In this document: positions 2,164-42,392 of the stretch, piece by piece
Layout: each line of letters starts with the position of its first letter
Numbering within the stretch: the stretch's first letter is position 1
NCBI GenBank assembly: GCA_033580815.1
Contig: JAVQUC010000002.1
Span: 4,259 to 68,258, forward strand
DNA length: 64,000 nucleotides
Source: Candidatus Caldarchaeum sp.
GTDB taxonomy: Archaea > Thermoproteota > Nitrososphaeria_A > Caldarchaeales > Caldarchaeaceae
Direction: 5' to 3'
Made by a program: the position numbers and the translations under genes
Notes under the pieces: generated by a model
Told to the model about the DNA's origin: nothing
Database searches by the model: none
Seen by the model: only the letters and a program-made list of their open reading frames with translations

Positions 2164-3306
2164 TTGCAGACGAGCTCAAAATGGGTTCTCCTATCATGGC
2201 TATTCGTCGACCGCATCGTCTACACGCTTAACTGGCTTTCCATCTCGCCGGCCCAGCCCTTCATAGCCAGTGAATTCGGGGTAGGTCTTACGTCGCTCGG
2301 AGTGCTGGGAACGGTTTTCCTCGTCGGAATAGGAACCTTCCAGATTCCAGCCGGCTTACTAGCGACGAAATACGGCCCAAAGAAAATCGCCCTGACAGGG
2401 CTTTTCCTCTCATCGCTTTTCGCGGGCCTTTGTAGTTTGGCTCCCAACTTCGAATCGCTCCTGGTTCTCAGGTTTTTGACTGGAGTGTTTCTTAGTTTTT
2501 TCTTCGGTCCGGGGATCTCGTTCTTCACACCGCTCTTCGGCGTCAGGGAAAGAGGCACTGCTTTAGGCATCTACAACGCGGGCTTTCATGTCGGCACGCT
2601 GCTCGCCATCGGAGTCTGGCCGACTTTGATTACCCAGGTAGGGTGGCGCTTGGGTCTTTTGATTCCCGGCGTGATTGGGTTAGTTCTTACAGGCGTCACC
2701 TACGGTGTCTCGCGCTGGGTGAACGACAGAACCAACAACGAGGAATATGGGTTGTCAGCTATCAAAAACACTGCAGTGATCAGCTCAGCGTTGGGCCTTG
2801 CCCTAGCCGGGGCTGCATGGTATCCGCTTACACAGTTTGGAATCCTCTATCTGGATTTGGAGAAGGATGTTGGGTTTGAGGCCGCCGGTGCCTTGATATC
2901 GGTTCTTTCTGTTGGAAGCGTCTTCGGCGCGCCCCTTTCCGGAAGAATTTTCGACAGAGCGCGAAACCGCAAACTATTGCTGTATCTCCTCAATGTCTTA
3001 AGCGCGCTAGCCTTGTCGGCCTTCGTCTTCACACCAGTCGCTCTGATACCTTTGGTGATGTTTGTTATCGGATTTCTTTACACCTCCTCCAACAGCCTGT
3101 TCTACCTCGTCCCCATGTCTCTCCTTCCCGAAGAGAAGGTGGCGGTGGCCGTCGCCATGGTCAACTCTGTTCATCTGCTGGCGGCCTCGGTCATTCCATT
3201 CGTGTTCGCGAACCTTGTCGAATCGCTGGGATACGTCGTAGGATGGCTGTCAATGTCTGCACTCTGTGCTTCTGCCCTTGTCTGCATTCGAGGAATGAAA
3301 GTTTAA
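2164..3306 (+). CDS. MFS-family transporter (380 aa)
   Basis: About 12 predicted hydrophobic helices. The length and G/A/L-rich composition are typical of the major facilitator superfamily. Confidence 0.6.
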   Translation: MQTSSKWVLLSWLFVDRIVYTLNWLSISPAQPFIASEFGVGLTSLGVLGTVFLVGIGTFQIPAGLLATKYGPKKIALTGLFLSSLFAGLCSLAPNFESLLVLRFLTGVFLSFFFGPGISFFTPLFGVRERGTALGIYNAGFHVGTLLAIGVWPTLITQVGWRLGLLIPGVIGLVLTGVTYGVSRWVNDRTNNEEYGLSAIKNTAVISSALGLALAGAAWYPLTQFGILYLDLEKDVGFEAAGALISVLSVGSVFGAPLSGRIFDRARNRKLLLYLLNVLSALALSAFVFTPVALIPLVMFVIGFLYTSSNSLFYLVPMSLLPEEKVAVAVAMVNSVHLLAASVIPFVFANLVESLGYVVGWLSMSALCASALVCIRGMKV

Positions 3307-3324
3307 CCACTGTGAAGTGGTTAA
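3303..3324 (+). terminator. Perfect palindrome TTAACCACT-GTGA-AGTGGTTAA overlapping the MFS stop codon, followed by an A-rich tract. Possible terminator or protein-binding site.
   Basis: 9-bp inverted repeat with a 4-nt loop, read directly from the sequence. Confidence 0.3.
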
Positions 3325-3357
3325 AAACTTAAATAATCAAAGTCCAAACCCACAACC

Positions 3358-3831
3358 ATGGATGTTTTTAGCGCGGCGGAGGAGATCATGGAGAACGCGC
3401 TGGTCTCCTCCCTCAGCTACGTCACATCATCGGGTGAAGTTTCAACTCATCCGATGCTTCCGCTCTACAGCAGAGAAAGAAAGAAGCTGTACATGACCTC
3501 AAGCATACTGTTCAGCAAAAAAATCGAGCACATAAAGAGGAACCCTAAGGTCGGTGTGCTGTTTAGCGGCCGGCAGTTCATCAGAACACCAACCTACTCC
3601 GCTTTACATCTCAAAGGCGATGCAAAGATCTACGAGGAAGACCTTCACAAGGGCTGGGAATGGCTCGTCGACCTCTGGCGTAAGAAGGAACCCTACATCG
3701 ATTCTTTCCTCAAACAGCGAATAGCATTGCCGCTCTTCTGGGAACGCGTGATCATCGAAATCACTCCCCGTGAACTGCTGCTTTGGAAAGACGGCGACAT
3801 AAGCACAGAGCCGCTGAGGTGGAGGGCATGA
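3358..3831 (+). CDS. Pyridoxamine-5'-phosphate-oxidase-like (FMN-binding split-barrel) protein, 157 aa
   Basis: Size and motif pattern (…KRNPKVGVLFSG… HLKGDAKIYEED…) of the PNPOx-like family. Its stop TGA overlaps the ATG of the next gene (ATGA). Confidence 0.5.
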   Translation: MDVFSAAEEIMENALVSSLSYVTSSGEVSTHPMLPLYSRERKKLYMTSSILFSKKIEHIKRNPKVGVLFSGRQFIRTPTYSALHLKGDAKIYEEDLHKGWEWLVDLWRKKEPYIDSFLKQRIALPLFWERVIIEITPRELLLWKDGDISTEPLRWRA

Positions 3832-5150
3832 CGGTCGAACGAGAGCTGGAGGAATTCAGCGACGTAGTCGTTTCATACTTGGATGACGACGGCTATCCCA
3901 TGAGCTATTCGACAACGGCGAGGAAGCACGAGGGAAAACTAATCCTCGAAAAACCACCCTACCTTAAGGTTAAACCACGTGTTACCGTTTTGCTCAACCA
4001 CATAACACCACTCCCCACAGGAGGCTACACCGATCGAAGGTACGTCATGATGAGAGGGCGTGCAGAGGTCGAAAGACGAACGGTCTTATTCACGCCGGAG
4101 AAAACCTACGGCTGGGACGAAAAAACAAAGCCCTTCTTCCAATATTGCGAGGAAAGGGTGCCGCAGGCGAGGAGGTATCTCACGGTACTGAGTGAAAGCG
4201 TTGGACGCGTCATCAAGGCGCGGCTGCCGACTGTTCAACTGCTTTTCAGAGCAACGAGGTTCCCGTTTCTGACAGCGACCGTCGCTCCCGTTTTGATCGG
4301 CGTCGGCTCAGCGGCCTATCTGGGATTCTTCGACCCGATTCTCTTCATCCTTACGCTGGTCGGCGCTAGCCTCATCCACCTAGGCCTAAACATGACGAAC
4401 GACTACTATGACTCGAAGCTGGGAGCGGACGAAGCGAACATCACGCCAACACCGTTCAGTGGGGGGTCGAGAATGATCCAGTATGGCTTGCTGTCGCCGA
4501 GACAAGTTGCGACGGCAGCGGCTCTGTTCTATCTTTTCGGGGGATTGATAGGAGTTTTCCTTGCTTTGACCCGTGGTCTAATACCGGTTTTGACTGTGAT
4601 GGCCATCGGCATCTTCATCAGCTACGCCTACACCGCCCCGCCTTTCAAGCTCGCCTACAGAGGAATGGGAGAATTGGCCGTTGGCATAGGCTTCGGCCCC
4701 GTAATCGTACTCGGAAGCCACTACGTCCAAACTCAAACCTTCTCTTTAGAGGCCGCTGTAGCCTCTATTCCCATAGGCATAATGATAGCACTAATCCTGT
4801 ACATCAACGAAATACCCGACGCACCCTACGACACCGTAGCAGGCAAACGAACCATCGTGACAAGGCTTTCGAAACCCGCCGTGCTTACCTTGTACAAAAT
4901 TCTCCTCGGGCTGGCGTACGCGTTCATAGTTGGTTCTGTCGTGTCGGGTCTGGCTCCTCCGACGGTTTTGCTGGGTCTGCTGACGATTCCGAAAGCGGTC
5001 AAAACAGTTCGGCTTGTGTCACAGACTTACGGCAGTCCGTATTTGATGATTCCTGCTCTCGCATCAAACATCCAGGTTGCGACTTTGACAGGGTTTTTGA
5101 TGGCCGCTGGTTTCTTCCTCTGGGCTGTGGTGCGGCTGTTGTTGCCGTAA
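3828..5150 (+). CDS. Fusion protein: an N-terminal PNPOx-like soluble domain of about 130 aa joined to a UbiA-family aromatic/isoprenoid prenyltransferase with about 8 TM helices
   Basis: GGAGG Shine-Dalgarno sequence 8 nt upstream of the ATG at 3828. The C-terminal part carries the UbiA signature NDYYDSKLGAD (NDxxDxxxD) plus many TM helices. The N-terminal part (VVVSYLDDDGYPMSYS… VTVLLNH…) resembles a second split-barrel domain. Confidence 0.6.
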   Translation: MTVERELEEFSDVVVSYLDDDGYPMSYSTTARKHEGKLILEKPPYLKVKPRVTVLLNHITPLPTGGYTDRRYVMMRGRAEVERRTVLFTPEKTYGWDEKTKPFFQYCEERVPQARRYLTVLSESVGRVIKARLPTVQLLFRATRFPFLTATVAPVLIGVGSAAYLGFFDPILFILTLVGASLIHLGLNMTNDYYDSKLGADEANITPTPFSGGSRMIQYGLLSPRQVATAAALFYLFGGLIGVFLALTRGLIPVLTVMAIGIFISYAYTAPPFKLAYRGMGELAVGIGFGPVIVLGSHYVQTQTFSLEAAVASIPIGIMIALILYINEIPDAPYDTVAGKRTIVTRLSKPAVLTLYKILLGLAYAFIVGSVVSGLAPPTVLLGLLTIPKAVKTVRLVSQTYGSPYLMIPALASNIQVATLTGFLMAAGFFLWAVVRLLLP

Positions 5151-5187
5151 CAAAGTTAAAATCGCTGTTTTTTCACCATAGCCCGAA

Positions 5188-6264
5188 ATGGTGAGACGCA
5201 GAGCAGCTGCCAAACCAGCGTACATTGGTTCCCTCCGTGGCAGAGATTTCCTCAACACGAACGACTTCAGTCAGGAGGAAATTAACAACATCCTCAAAGC
5301 CGCAAGAGATTTGCGTGAAAAATTCAAAGCCCGTAAACCAACTGAGTACTTGAGAGGCCAAACGCTTTTCATGATCTTCTACAACCGCTCCCTCAGAACA
5401 CGCAACTCCTTCGAAGCGGGAATCTATCAACTTGGTGGTCACGCCCACTTCCTCAGCCCATCAGACGTCTACACACCAACCCTACCCGAAGATATGATCC
5501 CTTACCAAACGGAATCAATCGCTGATGTGGCCCGTGTTCTCAGCACATACGGTGACGCCATCGCCGTGAGAATCTACGGAGACGCGGCCAAATGGCATAT
5601 CGGAAGAGGCCACAGGGTTATTCAAGAGTTCGCGAAATGGAGTACCATTCCCGTTCTGAACATGGAAGACGACATCTACCATCCCTTCCAAGCGCTCGCA
5701 GACATGATGGCTATAACGGATGTAGCCCCAAAGCCGAGGGGTAAGAAATTCGTCGTCTCCTACGCCTACTCAGGAGGTCTTAAACCGCTTGCAGTCCCCC
5801 AAAGCTGTATTCTAATCGGAACACAGTTTGGGATGGATGTTGTGTTGGCTCATCCACCTGGGTTTGAGCTTGAAGACCACGTCATCCAGGCATGTAAGAA
5901 AAACGTGGAGCAGTACGGCGGCTCGTTCAAAATAACAAACAACATGAAGGAGGCTTTTGAGGGTGCAGACTTTGTTTATCCGAAGGCATGGTCGCCGAAA
6001 AAATTCTTCCCACCTTATAACAATACCGTTGACAAGGAGGGGGCAACTCGATACCAAGACGAGTTCAAGGCATGGATAACGACTCCGGAGCTGATGGACT
6101 TAACCAACAAGGGCAAATACATGCACTGCGGCCCAGCCGACAGAGGACAAGAGGTCGTCGACGAAGTCATCGACAACCCAAACTATTCACTATACTTTCA
6201 ACAAGCCGAAAACCGACTTCACGTCCAGAAGGCCGTGATGTCGATGACGATGGGAAAGAGATGA
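5188..6264 (+). CDS. OTC/ATC-superfamily transcarbamylase of unassigned specificity (358 aa), possibly YgeW/oxamate- or putrescine-carbamoyltransferase-like
   Basis: STRTRNSFE (carbamoyl-phosphate binding), HPFQALAD (HPxQ) and a C-terminal HCGPADRGQEV (HCLP-like) are present. The classical ornithine (DxxxSMG) and aspartate motifs are missing. It is a paralog of 10083..11102. Confidence 0.65.
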   Translation: MVRRRAAAKPAYIGSLRGRDFLNTNDFSQEEINNILKAARDLREKFKARKPTEYLRGQTLFMIFYNRSLRTRNSFEAGIYQLGGHAHFLSPSDVYTPTLPEDMIPYQTESIADVARVLSTYGDAIAVRIYGDAAKWHIGRGHRVIQEFAKWSTIPVLNMEDDIYHPFQALADMMAITDVAPKPRGKKFVVSYAYSGGLKPLAVPQSCILIGTQFGMDVVLAHPPGFELEDHVIQACKKNVEQYGGSFKITNNMKEAFEGADFVYPKAWSPKKFFPPYNNTVDKEGATRYQDEFKAWITTPELMDLTNKGKYMHCGPADRGQEVVDEVIDNPNYSLYFQQAENRLHVQKAVMSMTMGKR

Positions 6265-16109: not shown

Positions 16110-17111
16110 CTAAACCTCCGCGATGCTCTTGATTAGGTATTCTGGGTCTCCGCTCAAAGGTAGCAGGAGCGGCGAAGTGCATCCATGAGCCATGTATTCC
16201 TTGACCTTTGACACCACGTCTGAAACGGTTCCGGAGGCGCTTATCATTCTGACTATGTCGTCGGGAACGATTTCTGTCGCCTTCTCTATTCCGCCCGGTT
16301 TCGCAGGCCAGCCACCCATGATGCGTTGTACTTCATGAATCAAGTCTTCGCTCACTCCGCTTGCTTTCATGATGTGCGGCTGCTGGCCCAAAGTCATGGT
16401 CACGTGTTTTTTGGCGAGTTTCACAGCCTTATCGGCATCAGGATGCACCGAGCAAGCTATTAATTGCGGCCTGTCTATGTCCTCGAGCCTCCGCCCTGCT
16501 CTTGCTGCACCGATCTTTATGTGTTCCAGCGCTGTGTCGTTGTATTTGGGGGAGACGAGGTAGTTGAGGAGTACTCCGTCGCCGATTTCTCCAGCTAGCT
16601 CCATCATCTTCCATCCGGTAGCACCGATGTAAATGGGGATGTTTCGGGGTTTCTCTCCAGCGCCGTGTAGAACGTCCAAACGAACACCTCGCATTTTCAC
16701 AAACTTTCCTTCAAACGTCACCTCCTCCATGCGGAAAAGCCTGCGAATTACTTCGACGTATTCCCGCATGCATTTAAGAGGCTCGGTCCTCTCTATCCCA
16801 ACCTTCCAAGCAAGCGGGTCCCACCAAGCACCAAGTCCGAGAATAACACGTCCATCGCTCAATTCATCCATCGTCGCGAAAGTCTGAGCGATGAGGGCGG
16901 CGTTACGGGTCCAAGTGTTTATCACACCAGCTCCAACCTTGATTTTGGAAGTGACTGTTGCGATTGCGGTCATGGGAGTCAACGCATCTCTTGCCAGACG
17001 TGATTCGGCTACCCATGCCGATTCGAAATCGTAACGCTCGGCGAGCTGAGCATAACGTACCATCTCACGGACATGCATGTCTTGAAGATATAGACCCCAG
17101 CGAACATCCAT
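16110..17111 (-). CDS. Luciferase-like (LLM) flavin/F420-dependent oxidoreductase, 333 aa
   Basis: TIM-barrel LLM family features (…GLGAWWDP…). First gene of the minus-strand operon. Confidence 0.6.
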   Translation of the reverse strand: MDVRWGLYLQDMHVREMVRYAQLAERYDFESAWVAESRLARDALTPMTAIATVTSKIKVGAGVINTWTRNAALIAQTFATMDELSDGRVILGLGAWWDPLAWKVGIERTEPLKCMREYVEVIRRLFRMEEVTFEGKFVKMRGVRLDVLHGAGEKPRNIPIYIGATGWKMMELAGEIGDGVLLNYLVSPKYNDTALEHIKIGAARAGRRLEDIDRPQLIACSVHPDADKAVKLAKKHVTMTLGQQPHIMKASGVSEDLIHEVQRIMGGWPAKPGGIEKATEIVPDDIVRMISASGTVSDVVSKVKEYMAHGCTSPLLLPLSGDPEYLIKSIAEV

Positions 17112-40598: not shown

Positions 40599-41926
40599 TC
40601 GAGGTGATTGAGCCGCGGATAAAGGAATTCTTGAAAGCACGAGTGATGGCCGGTGACGTGGCTCCGGAGCTCGACGGCCGTCGCGTCAACTTGTTTGGAT
40701 GGGTGCATGAAATCCGGGACCTCGGTAAACTTGTCTTCCTCGTTCTTAGAGATGTTTCGGGGATGTGTCAGATAGTTTTTAGGATGGACGAACTCGGAGA
40801 AAAGGCTAGGTCAGTTGTAAAGGACATCAAAAATGAATCGGTCGTCTACGTCAGCGGTGTGGTTGTTAAACAGCCAAAATCTAGGCTGGGTGTAGAAGTA
40901 GTCGCTGATTCTGTCGAGATTTTGGGACAAGCGGTTCCGAAGCTAGAATACGACCCGACGGGCAAAGTCCCGGCGAGCATGGATGTGAGGCTAAAGCATA
41001 GAGTCCTCGACCTAAGAAGACCAGAAGTTAAGACAGTCTTTATAATTGGCAGCCATGTCCTCAAAGCTCTCAGGGATTTTTTCCACCAAAACGGGTTCGT
41101 CGAGGTGAGGACTCCCAAGATAATCGCGTCTGCTACAGAAGGAGGTGCAGCACTTTTCGAAATAAAATATTTTGACAGGACGGCCTTTCTCGCCCAAAGT
41201 CCGCAGCTCTATAAGGAGCAGCTCACAACTGTTTTCGAGAAGGTCTTCGAAATAGGCCCGTTCTTCAGAGCCGAAGAATCCCATACACGACGGCACATAA
41301 GCGAGTTTACTTCGGTCGACATTGAGCAGGCTTTCGCAGACATGTATGATGTGATGAAGGTTCTGGAGGATGCGGTGGTCTACGTTCATAAGACTATTTT
41401 GGAAAAATGTGACAAGCAGTTGAAGGAACTCGGTGTCACCCTTCGGGTTCCCAAAACTCCCTTCCCTAGAATAACATACGATGAAGCCTTGGAGTTGTTG
41501 AGGCAGGAGGGCGAGACGGTCAAATGGGGTGAAGATTTCAGCACACCACAACTCAGAACACTTGGCAAAAAATTCACCAGCTACTACTTCATCACCGATT
41601 TTCCCTCCGAGATAAAGCCCTTTTACATTCAGGCGAAGGCTGAAAATCCGACTTTGTCCGAGTCTTTCGACCTCATGTTCCAATGGCTTGAGCTTGCGTC
41701 TGGAGGAACTCGCGTCTCCGACCACGATGTTTTGGTGCGTAAGCTGGTTGAGAAGGGTCTTGACCCTAGGATGTTTGAGGACCATTTGAAAGTGTTCCGA
41801 TACGGAATGCCTGTTCACGCAGGATGGGGCCTCGGGTTTGAAAGGCTCTTGATGGTGTTGACCAGAAGAACCAACATAAGGGAGACGGTTTTGTATCCAC
41901 GGGACAGGTTTAGGTTGACTCCTTGA
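40595..41926 (+). CDS. aspS: Aspartyl-tRNA synthetase, archaeal type (443 aa)
   Basis: N-terminal OB anticodon-binding domain and class II motifs (FFRAEES…, GxGxGxER: GWGLGFERLLM). Confidence 0.9.
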   Translation: MIEVIEPRIKEFLKARVMAGDVAPELDGRRVNLFGWVHEIRDLGKLVFLVLRDVSGMCQIVFRMDELGEKARSVVKDIKNESVVYVSGVVVKQPKSRLGVEVVADSVEILGQAVPKLEYDPTGKVPASMDVRLKHRVLDLRRPEVKTVFIIGSHVLKALRDFFHQNGFVEVRTPKIIASATEGGAALFEIKYFDRTAFLAQSPQLYKEQLTTVFEKVFEIGPFFRAEESHTRRHISEFTSVDIEQAFADMYDVMKVLEDAVVYVHKTILEKCDKQLKELGVTLRVPKTPFPRITYDEALELLRQEGETVKWGEDFSTPQLRTLGKKFTSYYFITDFPSEIKPFYIQAKAENPTLSESFDLMFQWLELASGGTRVSDHDVLVRKLVEKGLDPRMFEDHLKVFRYGMPVHAGWGLGFERLLMVLTRRTNIRETVLYPRDRFRLTP

Positions 41927-42392
41927 GTTGAGCCGGTCTGTGGTACTGTCTCTGAAAGTAGATTAGGGGTTGGTCGTTCGAAAGAATCCTAAAGTTTCTG
42001 ACTAGTCCGAGGATTATGTTGTGCGTTGAGGCCTCGATGTGGTTGTAGACTTCGCAGAAAAGAGTACCAATAACTCCCTCGATGACCGGGTAACCGTTTT
42101 CTTCGACACGGTATTTCACCTTCTCGAATCTTTCGTGGTGGGGTGCGTAGGCGAACAGGTCTGATACAAATGATTGTTTTTCGGACAATAGGTTGACGCA
42201 AAAACGTCTGGTTTCAAGAATCTTATTGCACGTCTGGGTCGTTTTCTCGAGCACTACTAGGACTAAGGGAGGGTCCAGGCTAACTGAGGTGAATGAGCTG
42301 ACAGTCATTCCATGAGATTTCACACCGTCATGGGTGGTGACGATAGTGACGGCCTGAGGGACTCTGCGCATAAAATCTCTTAGATCTGTCAT
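41910..42392 (-). CDS. Flavin reductase-like (FMN-binding split-barrel) protein, 160 aa
   Basis: …AVTIVTTHDG…HGMTVSSFTSVSLDPPLV… is the flavin reductase domain signature. Confidence 0.65.
   Translation of the reverse strand: MTDLRDFMRRVPQAVTIVTTHDGVKSHGMTVSSFTSVSLDPPLVLVVLEKTTQTCNKILETRRFCVNLLSEKQSFVSDLFAYAPHHERFEKVKYRVEENGYPVIEGVIGTLFCEVYNHIEASTHNIILGLVRNFRILSNDQPLIYFQRQYHRPAQLKEST

Follow-up and report, generated by a model that had tools for sequence, protein, structure and literature searches.

Two overlapping genes lie on the forward strand of the window, by which we mean the whole 64,000-nucleotide stretch of DNA analysed here. ORF1 (3358..3831, +) encodes a stand-alone PNPOx-like split-barrel protein of 157 amino acids, and ORF2 (3828..5150, +), whose ATG is at 3828, encodes a protein of 440 amino acids. 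They share an ATGA (3828..3831, +) in which the ATG of ORF2 (3828-3830) overlaps the TGA of ORF1 (3829-3831), bearing out a preliminary description of this DNA that had seen a stand-alone split-barrel gene run into a second gene at this point. From its sequence, the start/stop overlap is taken as translational coupling of ORF1 and ORF2. An ORF2 start at 3828 is preferred over a TTG at 3783 because the 440-residue product is 100% identical to a deposited protein from a Candidatus Caldarchaeum sp. MAG.

The signals around the genes were read directly from the DNA. An SD-like GAGGTGGAGGG (3816..3826, +) precedes the ORF2 start within the 3' end of ORF1, and a candidate archaeal TATA box, TTAAATAA (3329..3336, +), lies approximately 25 nt 5' of the ORF1 ATG; a sigma-70 promoter scan of the locus gave no match. 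The TATA candidate would imply a bicistronic transcript, either leaderless or with a short leader, and a run of six thymines (5168..5173, +), 18 nt 3' of the ORF2 stop, is a candidate archaeal terminator for it.

The two split barrels

ORF1 matches the PNPOx_N model of Pfam weakly (E = 5e-5; 24.1 bits against a GA of 28.1) and the NCBIfam model TIGR03618 at E = 2.7e-4, and PF01243 was found by precomputed or direct scans in most of its orthologues (n = 238 homologues). When a profile of the ORF1 family was compared with PDB sequences, it matched 2i02, 3ec6 and E. coli PdxH. The family alignment and a HMMER alignment to PdxH pick out the motif TSSILFSKK (residues 47-55; 3496..3522, +), in which T47, S48, S49, L51, F52, S53 and K55 are largely invariant in the family and after which comes a conserved NPKV. 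In the HMMER alignment (6ylz/1dnl/1g76), TSSILFSKK...NPKV lines up with YTNxxSRK...NPRV of PdxH, the segment that we take to bind the flavin phosphate in PNPOx, with TSSILFSKK as its counterpart. These data suggest that ORF1 is the more canonical PNPOx-like barrel, with the PdxH-type flavin-phosphate motif kept, and they make it a candidate flavin- or F420-binding subunit.

The sequence evidence on which cofactor ORF1 would bind conflicts, and all of the matches lie below cut-off. Per-sequence scans of ORF1 relatives favoured the F420-type models TIGR03618 and TIGR03667, in every case below their cut-offs: 23 of 25 family members matched the F420-type PPOX model TIGR03618, with a best sub-cut-off E value of 3.8e-10, and the ORF1 of the window failed the curated F420-type PPOX cut-off with 21 bits against 79 (TIGR03618/TIGR03667). 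The family profile, on the other hand, favoured FMN/FAD proteins and PdxH among the PDB sequences and did not retrieve Rv1155 from them. F420 is plausible in this host because a Mer-like F420-type LLM gene lies in the same window (16110-17108) and the closest named families of ORF1 are F420-type PPOX. We infer that the cofactor would be either F420 or FMN.

The N-terminal domain of ORF2 (the N-domain; residues 1-135; 3828..4232, +) is a divergent split barrel by AF2, Foldseek and hhalign. Searches with residues 1-138 returned no Pfam or NCBIfam match, and 25 N-domain relatives gave nothing usable against the same two collections, two of them touching Pyridox_ox_2 at E = 0.011. Nor was any PDB sequence matched significantly by an N-domain profile, the returns being Rv2991 (E = 0.73) and a gasdermin, the latter spurious. 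The AF2 model of the domain (pLDDT 89.8) has seven strands and one helix, and its best 50 Foldseek matches in the PDB are all PNPOx-like split barrels (best E = 1.2e-4; TM approximately 0.5), in agreement with the second split-barrel domain that had been suspected at this end of ORF2. BLASTP of ORF1 against the N-domain detected no relation (E = 1.6); their kinship was seen only by profile-profile comparison of the two families, in which hhalign gave a probability of 84% and E = 7.7e-6. Together, the models and alignments indicate that the fold of ORF1 occurs again in the N-domain, where it had not been recognised before.

Alignments of homologues define an N-domain signature, NHITPLPTGGYTDRRY (residues 57-72; 3996..4043, +), in which G66 and Y67 are invariant among 86 homologues and H58, I59, P61, R70, R71 and Y72 are conserved at 90% or more. 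The signature is also retained in N-domain proteins that are not fused to a transferase (for example, at locus L033). The N-domain is variable where ORF1 has TSSxLFSKK and has conserved motifs of its own, GGYTDRRY and WDE; no flavin-phosphate motif was found in it, the segment aligned to the ORF1 motif being variable. Because it is without the flavin-phosphate motif that ORF1 keeps, the N-domain is probably not a flavoprotein alone and probably acts instead as the partner of ORF1.

The prenyltransferase domain of ORF2

The remainder of ORF2 (residues approximately 139-440; 4242..5150 including the stop codon, +) is a predicted prenyltransferase domain of the MenA/UBIAD1 type. The earlier assignment to the UbiA family held, with UbiA PF01040 matching residues 152-391 (E = 1e-25) and the sequence NDYYDSKLGAD at residues 191-201. 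The full-length AF2 model (pLDDT 93.8; pTM 0.88) has not the eight or so transmembrane helices first estimated but nine long ones, all within residues 145-438. So high a pTM in a protein of two domains speaks for a barrel that is docked on the transferase in a fixed position.

ORF2 passed the MenA model TIGR00751 (114.1 bits; cut-off 102.15), failed NF004751 (178 bits; cut-off 264) and reached one of seven MenA equivalog cut-offs, NF004749 and TIGR02235 being among those failed. MenA models matched it at 3e-52 and chlorophyll synthase at 4e-7, a difference of approximately 45 orders of magnitude, and haem O synthase was absent from the 14 NCBIfam families with an ORF2 match at E ≤ 1; on these scores we dropped both the chlorophyll synthase and the haem O synthase identities. 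UBIAD1 is the best solved relative of the transferase by sequence (8djk; E = 2e-11) and, in a Foldseek search with the full-length AF2 model, by fold (8djk_B; TMt 0.78); DGGGPS, AfUbiA and ApUbiA were among the other matches of that model. Because UBIAD1 comes first on both counts, we favour quinone over ether-lipid chemistry. The preliminary description had allowed for either, and the ether-lipid part of that suggestion did not stand, the transferase being MenA/UBIAD1-like and not DGGGP synthase-like.

The first Asp-rich motif, N188-x2-N191-D192-x2-D195-x3-G199-x-D201 (4389..4430, +), lies at the end of TM2 and is invariant in 86 homologues. The second, N327-E-I-P-D331-x3-D335-x4-K340 (4806..4847, +), lies in loop 6-7, and D331, D335 and K340 are invariant in the same number of homologues. 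Loop 2-3 of the ORF2 family carries an invariant, family-specific PTxxSGGSR and a 7-residue insertion relative to UBIAD1. These features indicate that ORF2 is a MenA/UBIAD1-type polyprenyltransferase with intact catalytic motifs, for which the substrate is a prediction. Public records label the ORF2-type protein as 1,4-dihydroxy-2-naphthoate octaprenyltransferase.

Conservation of the barrel pair

The best 120 homologues of ORF2 are all full length (120/120), and the search for the same fusion in other genomes, which the preliminary description had recommended, gave 102 confirmed matches in GTDB species genomes. The architecture had been called non-standard; the fusion is real, but it is not peculiar to this genome and belongs to a conserved family that is usually annotated as plain MenA. 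The N-domain family forms only 168 clusters at 50% identity among 1.84 billion proteins. Of 82 related loci, 81 have an ORF1 orthologue immediately 5' of the gene for the N-domain; the remaining one is cut by a contig end. Carriers of the pair range from hot-spring archaea to soil bacteria and comprise Caldarchaeales/Calditenuaceae, other Thermoproteota, Chloroflexota and Actinomycetota. When 81 loci were scored by the primary start chosen by our script, start and stop overlapped by 4 nt in 41 and by 1 nt in 10, and an alternative start at -4 or -1 was available in most of the remainder. Thirteen soil archaeal MAGs encode a free-standing N-domain, unfused to a transferase, whose gene still overlaps ORF1. 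This persistence of the pairing without a fused transferase indicates that the conserved unit is the pair of barrels.

We found no conserved men, mqn or methyltransferase genes in the neighbourhoods of the examined loci, and clustering of the neighbourhoods of 82 loci returned only shadow ORFs, generic ABC ATPases and MFS transporters. A linked MFS importer was considered and rejected: the gene adjoining the cassette in the window has orthologues only within Caldarchaeum and is fragmented in two such genomes. The MFS gene beside the window cassette is a weak lead. A UbiE-like methyltransferase partner was likewise set aside, the gene being upstream in Gaiellales-type loci only and of low similarity; clade synteny is the more likely explanation for it than functional linkage. 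Single chains that carry both barrels (P0291, P0321, P0324 and others) were not counted as natural fusions, as they look indel-damaged and degrade downstream to nonsense sequence of the kind typical of indel errors.

Other redox domains are found on UbiA-type enzymes. On an Asgard-like contig, an N-domain::PNPOx_N::UbiA protein is encoded downstream of an ORF1 orthologue (37% identity); this triple-barrel variant shows that the barrels may associate in more elaborate ways than as one plain 1:1 heterodimer. A PNPOx_N::UbiA protein, P0391, is encoded on a 7-Mb bacterial contig with no ORF1 partner. A fusion of a Mer-like F420-type LLM domain to a MenA-like transferase, which has at least 506 metagenomic relatives, lies beside the cassette at one locus (L080); it was rejected as a cassette-linked gene, since it adjoins the cassette at none of 80 loci elsewhere. 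In P0391 and in the LLM fusion, a redox domain has been joined to a MenA-like transferase on independent occasions.

A possible redox-coupled prenyltransferase

We tentatively propose, with a probability of roughly 45%, that ORF1 and ORF2 form a bicistronic, coupled operon for one membrane enzyme in which a heterodimer of barrels would carry out ring reduction coupled to prenylation. Split barrels of the PNPOx class act as dimers with the flavin at the subunit interface, and it is for this reason that we propose that ORF1 would pair with the N-domain of ORF2 to give an asymmetric heterodimer. Such a heterodimer would have a single complete cofactor site, for FMN or F420, and would sit immediately above the active site of the transferase, on the cytoplasmic face. 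In the AF2 model, the helix count puts the N-domain and both Asp-rich loops on one side of the membrane, the side that is cytoplasmic in solved UbiA structures.

There, the module would perform a two-electron reduction of the ring coupled to prenylation, a coupling that the preliminary description had raised and that we also infer. It could reduce a naphthoquinone acceptor to the quinol, the prenylatable form, as menadione needs for UBIAD1, or it could keep a demethylmenaquinone product reduced for the next step, as NdbB/NDC1 does in phylloquinone synthesis. The pathway would end in a menaquinone-type prenylated naphthoquinone. A need for pre-reduction is not obvious, since DHNA, which MenA normally uses, is a hydroquinone to begin with. 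The absence of conserved men, mqn and methyltransferase genes from the examined neighbourhoods also weighs against the proposal, as does the conflicting cofactor evidence. UBIAD1 is inactive without a reductant, and menadione requires prior reduction (PMC4398444); in phylloquinone synthesis a dedicated ring reductase acts after MenA (PMC5299476); and Ddn-type split-barrel enzymes reduce menaquinone and menadione with F420H2 (PMC11841060). In a narrower form, which we regard as doubtful, the enzyme would be a membrane 'reductive prenyltransferase' whose asymmetric two-barrel heterodimer, with one barrel soluble and the other fused to the transferase, would use F420H2 (or FMNH2) to convert a naphthoquinone to its quinol directly above a MenA/UBIAD1-type site.

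If the redox coupling holds, it would supply the missing ring-reduction step of menaquinone-type biosynthesis in lineages seen only in metagenomes. The PNPOx/FDOR superfamily would gain its first heterodimer tethered to a membrane, and F420 possibly a new physiological role. The narrower 'reductive prenyltransferase', if true, would link the synthesis or salvage of quinones to the deazaflavin pool in uncultured Aigarchaeota, Chloroflexota and Actinomycetota, and in the LLM::MenA-like and PNPOx::MenA-like fusions the same chemical need would have been answered independently, in parallel.

It is possible, although we consider it unlikely, that the two genes serve a shared pathway without forming a heterodimer. 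ORF1 would then be a homodimeric FMN/F420 oxidoreductase, such as a demethylmenaquinone or DHNA-quinone reductase, and the N-domain a catalytically dead barrel that dimerises or gates the transferase, or binds the aromatic acceptor. The missing phosphate-binding motif of the N-domain would fit this, as would its docking on the transferase with high model confidence when ORF1 is absent and the existence of the partnerless P0391, whose fused barrel presumably pairs with itself. However, a free N-domain that overlaps ORF1 in 13 genomes without a fused transferase is hard to explain if the domain serves the transferase only; conservation of the N-domain motifs equals or exceeds that of the ORF1 motifs, and the 4-nt and 1-nt overlaps suggest matched production of the two proteins. 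An improbable reading is that the barrels are not redox enzymes but carriers of a ligand (haem, another tetrapyrrole or another aromatic compound), like HugZ, HutZ, HupZ and the GluTR-binding protein, and that the substrate of the transferase is not a naphthoquinol. The Foldseek matches of the N-domain do include HutZ, HupZ, alr5027 and the GluTR-binding protein with scores near those of FMN/F420 binders, the transferase has weak ChlG/BchG matches, and men and mqn genes are absent nearby; yet the gap between the MenA and chlorophyll synthase scores, the absence of haem O synthase among the families reported, UBIAD1 as the closest structure and the alignment of ORF1 with PdxH over the flavin-phosphate motif all speak against it.

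We give very little weight to the view, contradicted by the conservation of the N-domain, of the neighbour and of the gene overlap, that ORF2 is simply a MenA whose N-terminal extension has no importance and whose neighbour is unrelated, for which the present annotation would be enough. The public name and the TIGR00751 cut-off agree with it, but ORF2 falls short of six other MenA equivalog models, the extension folds well as a domain and has residues invariant across phyla, and the ORF1 neighbour is kept in all but one of the 82 loci. A plain MenA annotation overlooks this conserved domain, which lies outside all Pfam and NCBIfam models and merits a family model of its own, together with an obligate partner gene. 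Least credible of all, and refuted by the other genomes, is a single gene split by an assembly frameshift error: the frames overlap and some database entries carry both barrels in one chain, but those entries end in indel-like nonsense sequence and the same two-frame arrangement recurs in more than 80 independent assemblies. The preliminary description had named such a split, and an N terminus lacking the split-barrel fold, as the outcomes that would count against it; we found a modelled split barrel and, in 81 of 82 loci, two genes with no frameshift.

The literature that we searched does not describe a UbiA/MenA enzyme bearing a split-barrel or F420-type domain. Like MenA and UBIAD1, ORF2 has the 9-TM UbiA fold and both Asp-rich motifs, and MenA models are its best matches in NCBIfam, but canonical MenA/UBIAD1 enzymes have neither a split-barrel domain nor an obligate barrel partner, and the PTxxSGGSR loop belongs to the ORF2 family. 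The Ddn/FDOR-A F420H2-dependent quinone reductases share the split-barrel fold and act on menaquinone and menadione at the membrane (PMC11841060), although they form another subfamily (PF04075/TIGR00026), unmatched by ORF1 and the N-domain, with a role in respiration or detoxification and not in biosynthesis. Genes of the Ddn/FDOR-A type adjoin the cassette in two actinobacterial loci. The demethylphylloquinone reductase NdbB/NDC1 offers a functional parallel to the module proposed here, in that it reduces the ring in the step immediately following MenA (PMC5299476), but this type II NAD(P)H dehydrogenase has an unrelated fold and is neither fused to nor co-encoded with MenA. The Mer-like LLM::MenA-like fusion resembles ORF2 in carrying an N-terminal flavin/deazaflavin-type oxidoreductase domain on a MenA-like transferase, and differs in its TIM-barrel LLM fold and in having no partner gene. 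The PNPOx-like proteins, including PdxH, general stress protein 26 and F420-dependent PPOX/FDOR-B members such as Rv1155, resemble ORF1 by sequence and the N-domain by fold, although the N-domain falls outside all current Pfam and NCBIfam models. To our knowledge, these proteins have been described as homodimers encoded by a single gene, whereas here two diverged paralogues are always co-encoded, one of them usually fused to a membrane enzyme.

An overlapping gene pair and its surroundings

ORF1, a stand-alone gene for a PNPOx-like split barrel (3358-3831, + strand, 157 amino acids), forms an operon with ORF2 (+ strand, 440 amino acids), which runs from an ATG at 3828 to 5150 and encodes an N-terminal domain (N-domain) followed by a UbiA-family prenyltransferase. 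The ATGA overlap claimed in the preliminary description is present at 3828-3831 (+), with the ORF2 ATG at 3828-3830 and the ORF1 stop TGA at 3829-3831, and a purine-rich GAGGTGGAGGG (3816-3826, +) lies directly 5′ of the ORF2 ATG. An earlier ORF2 start in a mechanical ORF list, TTG 3783, was outweighed by conservation of the start, as all homologues begin at the position equivalent to 3828 in the alignment, and by the deposited 440-amino-acid protein of a Candidatus Caldarchaeum sp. MAG, to which the ORF2 product is 100% identical. By eye we read a candidate archaeal TATA box, TTAAATAA (3329-3336, +), approximately 25 nt 5′ of the ORF1 ATG, and a candidate terminator with a T6 run (5168-5173, +); a scan for bacterial-type promoters of the cassette, as we call the ORF1 and N-domain gene pair, gave no match.

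Directly upstream of the cassette is an MFS transporter gene (2164-3306, +), whose weak best matches are anion and aromatic-acid symporter subfamilies, followed by a hairpin with a perfect 10-bp stem (3302-3325). This transporter is syntenic only within Caldarchaeum, where it is fragmented in two loci (L008 and L009); in Calditenuaceae, a different MFS subfamily is convergent to the cassette. Downstream lies a block of nitrogen and purine catabolism genes (5188-25529). Translation, together with Pfam analysis of a syntenic locus (L088), identified two carbamoyltransferase-like genes, a carbamate kinase, two PALP enzymes, a V4R protein and a xanthine-dehydrogenase-type molybdoenzyme in this block, and a direct Pfam scan of the window found amidohydrolases, an adenine deaminase, a Bmp-type ABC uptake system and an archaeal-type PEP carboxylase.

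Distribution and variants of the cassette

Each of the 120 top-ranking ORF2 homologues spans the whole protein (approximately 435-460 amino acids); their sources are Caldarchaeum, other Nitrososphaerota/Aigarchaeota and Actinomycetota. Scanning one genome per GTDB species with an N-domain profile gave at least 102 confirmed matches, a lower bound because the scan hinges on a single peptide pattern. We retrieved 80 loci, all from MAGs, which by the taxon label of the deposited entry belong to Caldarchaeales, Calditenuaceae and other hot-spring Thermoproteota (23), soil 'Bathyarchaeota/Crenarchaeota' (13), Chloroflexota (12), Actinomycetota (31) and Burkholderiales (1). We ran HMMs of the three modules against the six-frame ORFs from 82 loci, and the two barrels proved to co-occur obligately: an ORF1 orthologue lies directly 5′ of the N-domain gene in 81, and the lone exception is cut by a contig end. 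With the primary start chosen by our script, 41 loci show a 4-nt overlap between the N-domain start and the ORF1 stop and 10 show a 1-nt overlap; an alternative −4 or −1 start is possible in most of the remainder. This adjacency and the recurrent overlaps exclude a single gene split by a frameshift, and the cassette is neither an artefact nor a one-off.

In 13 soil archaeal MAGs (L025, L027, L033, L037, L039, L040, L042, L045, L047, L049, L063, L068 and L076), the N-domain is a free protein of 125-140 amino acids that ends past its C-terminal helix. Its gene still overlaps ORF1 (for example, 5471-5950 and 5851-6360 in L033), no transferase is fused or nearby, and Y106 and E108 of the fused form are substituted. 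As the pair is kept when unfused, the barrel pair is the conserved unit and the transferase an addition. In another variant, three split barrels accompany one transferase: at L084 (7518-9818), an ORF1 orthologue (37% identity) precedes an N-domain::PNPOx_N::UbiA protein (P0389; relatives P0317 and P0388). This locus is on a 2.85-Mb archaeal contig that looks Asgard-like, with eukaryote-like Arf/Ras/Roc-type small GTPase and SNARE-like genes.

A direct PNPOx_N::UbiA fusion (P0391, 501 amino acids; P0390 is similar) is encoded at 8001-9506 of L085, a 7.17-Mb bacterial contig; its transferase is of the ORF2 subtype, and the locus has neither an N-domain nor an upstream ORF1. The second gene upstream of the fusion encodes a quinone reductase of the Flavodoxin_2 type. 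Another redox fold was found in an actinobacterial MAG, 600 nt upstream of its cassette (L080, 2679-4676, +): a 665-amino-acid protein with a Mer-like F420-type luciferase-like oxidoreductase (LLM; residues 9-309) fused to a MenA-like transferase (367-661). For this fusion, at least 506 metagenomic relatives were confirmed, mainly from soil; across the 80 loci kept (L089-L168), identity over the whole protein is 59-78%, and none shows linkage to the split-barrel cassette. Our literature searches turned up no account of this fusion. Together with the cassette variants, these two fusions indicate that a flavin- or deazaflavin-type redox domain has been joined to the N terminus of a MenA-like transferase more than once.

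Two split barrels and a prenyltransferase

ORF1 matches PNPOx_N weakly but genuinely (E = 5e-5; 24.1 bits, gathering score 28.1) and TIGR03618 with E = 2.7e-4. PF01243 is found in most of its 238 database relatives, and a profile of 25 relatives retrieves 2i02, 3ec6 and PdxH, the E. coli PNPOx, from the PDB; by sequence, ORF1 is a member of the PNPOx-like superfamily. Its largely invariant TSSxLFSKK...NPKV aligns with YTNxxSRK...NPRV of PdxH, which we take to be the flavin-phosphate-binding segment of PNPOx. The two barrels are asymmetric here: ORF1 keeps the phosphate motif, whereas the N-domain is variable at this position and has invariant motifs of its own.

Pfam and NCBIfam scans of ORF2 residues 1-138, and of 25 relatives singly, gave no match. 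The N-domain is nevertheless strongly conserved, with alignments revealing the motifs DDDGYP, NHITPLPxGGYTDRRY, GWDE and PFFEYxE, and its AlphaFold model (pLDDT 89.8) has seven strands and a long helix. The best 50 Foldseek matches in the PDB are all PNPOx-like split barrels (best E = 1.2e-4, TM approximately 0.5), including FMN-, FAD-, F420- and haem-binding members, and profile-profile comparison with the ORF1 family gave 84% probability (E = 7.7e-6). The preliminary description was therefore correct in placing a second split barrel at the ORF2 N terminus. No described family fits the N-domain, which is a divergent, undescribed family inside the superfamily and occurs in only 168 of 1.84 billion clusters (50% identity). 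Four actinobacterial relatives (P0297, P0301, P0308 and P0312) have a long Ala/Pro-rich leader, GGFDDRSH in place of GGYTDRRY and a degenerate first Asp-rich motif; their transferases may be inactive or repurposed.

ORF2 residues ~139-440 are a MenA/UBIAD1-type prenyltransferase of the UbiA family (PF01040, E = 1e-25). The top NCBIfam matches, reaching 178 bits, are MenA models without exception, and sequence search retrieves a single solved relative, UBIAD1 (E = 2e-11). The full-length AlphaFold model (86-row alignment; pLDDT 93.8, pTM 0.88) places nine long helices in residues 145-438; UBIAD1 (8djk_B, TMt 0.78) ranks first among its structural matches, ahead of DGGGP synthase and archaeal UbiA homologues. 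Both Asp-rich motifs are intact and invariant across 86 homologues (N188, N191, D192, D195 and D201; D331, D335 and K340).

Cofactor and proposed mechanism

On the F420 side, 23 of 25 ORF1 relatives score best, among named families, with F420-type PPOX classes, all under cut-off, and to our knowledge F420 is known in every phylum with the cassette. The window encodes a Mer-like LLM (16110-17108, −) whose top 16 NCBIfam matches are F420-dependent classes throughout (203 bits for the Mer model, under cut-off), which suggests that the host uses F420. Deazaflavin-dependent quinone-reductase-family genes (PF04075/TIGR00026) also flank the cassette at less than 1 kb in two actinobacterial loci (L087, 6539-8560; L083, 7294-7755); a UbiE-type methyltransferase gene lies 2.2 kb upstream in L087. 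On the FMN side, the ORF1 family profile finds FMN/FAD proteins and PdxH in the PDB and does not retrieve Rv1155, an F420-type split barrel. Elsewhere, the window encodes an HpaC-like NAD(P)H:flavin reductase (41910-42389, −; Flavin_Reduct, E = 2.6e-42), a member of the split-barrel superfamily unrelated to the cassette.

In the ORF2 model, the N-domain precedes TM1 and the Asp-rich motifs lie at the end of TM2 and in loop 6-7, so the N-domain and both motifs are on the same membrane side, which is cytoplasmic in solved UbiA structures. Because PNPOx-type barrels hold their cofactor at the dimer interface, we propose that ORF1 and the N-domain may form a heterodimer in which a single complete site for FMN or F420 sits above the transferase active site, and that this module would link reduction of a naphthoquinone ring to prenylation. 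In the main rival reading, ORF1 would be a conventional homodimeric reductase of the same pathway and the N-domain a dead barrel that serves the transferase. It is also possible that the barrels are non-redox carriers of haem or another ligand, which the fold alone would fit, as haem-binding barrels are among the N-domain matches, but which is a poor fit to a transferase of the MenA/UBIAD1 type. Against our proposal count that DHNA is already a hydroquinone and that inspection of the locus neighbourhoods found no conserved men, mqn or menG genes near the cassette.

Our full-text searches, mostly outside subscription journals, revealed no paper in which a UbiA/MenA enzyme is connected with a domain of the split-barrel or F420 type. 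The interest of the cassette goes beyond a routine correction of annotation, as the barrel pair is kept in more than one domain of life and the hypothesis lends itself to direct testing. Known systems provide precedents for a ring-reduction step: UBIAD1 is inactive without a reductant because menadione must become a quinol first (PMC4398444), phylloquinone synthesis has a dedicated ring reductase, NdbB/NDC1, straight after the MenA step (PMC5299476), and Ddn-type enzymes, which are split barrels, use F420H2 to reduce menaquinone and menadione (PMC11841060). The ORF2 transferase is predicted to work as MenA and UBIAD1 do and probably belongs to their branch. It passes one curated MenA cut-off only (TIGR00751, 114 against 102) and is set apart by a distinctive invariant PTxxSGGSR loop.
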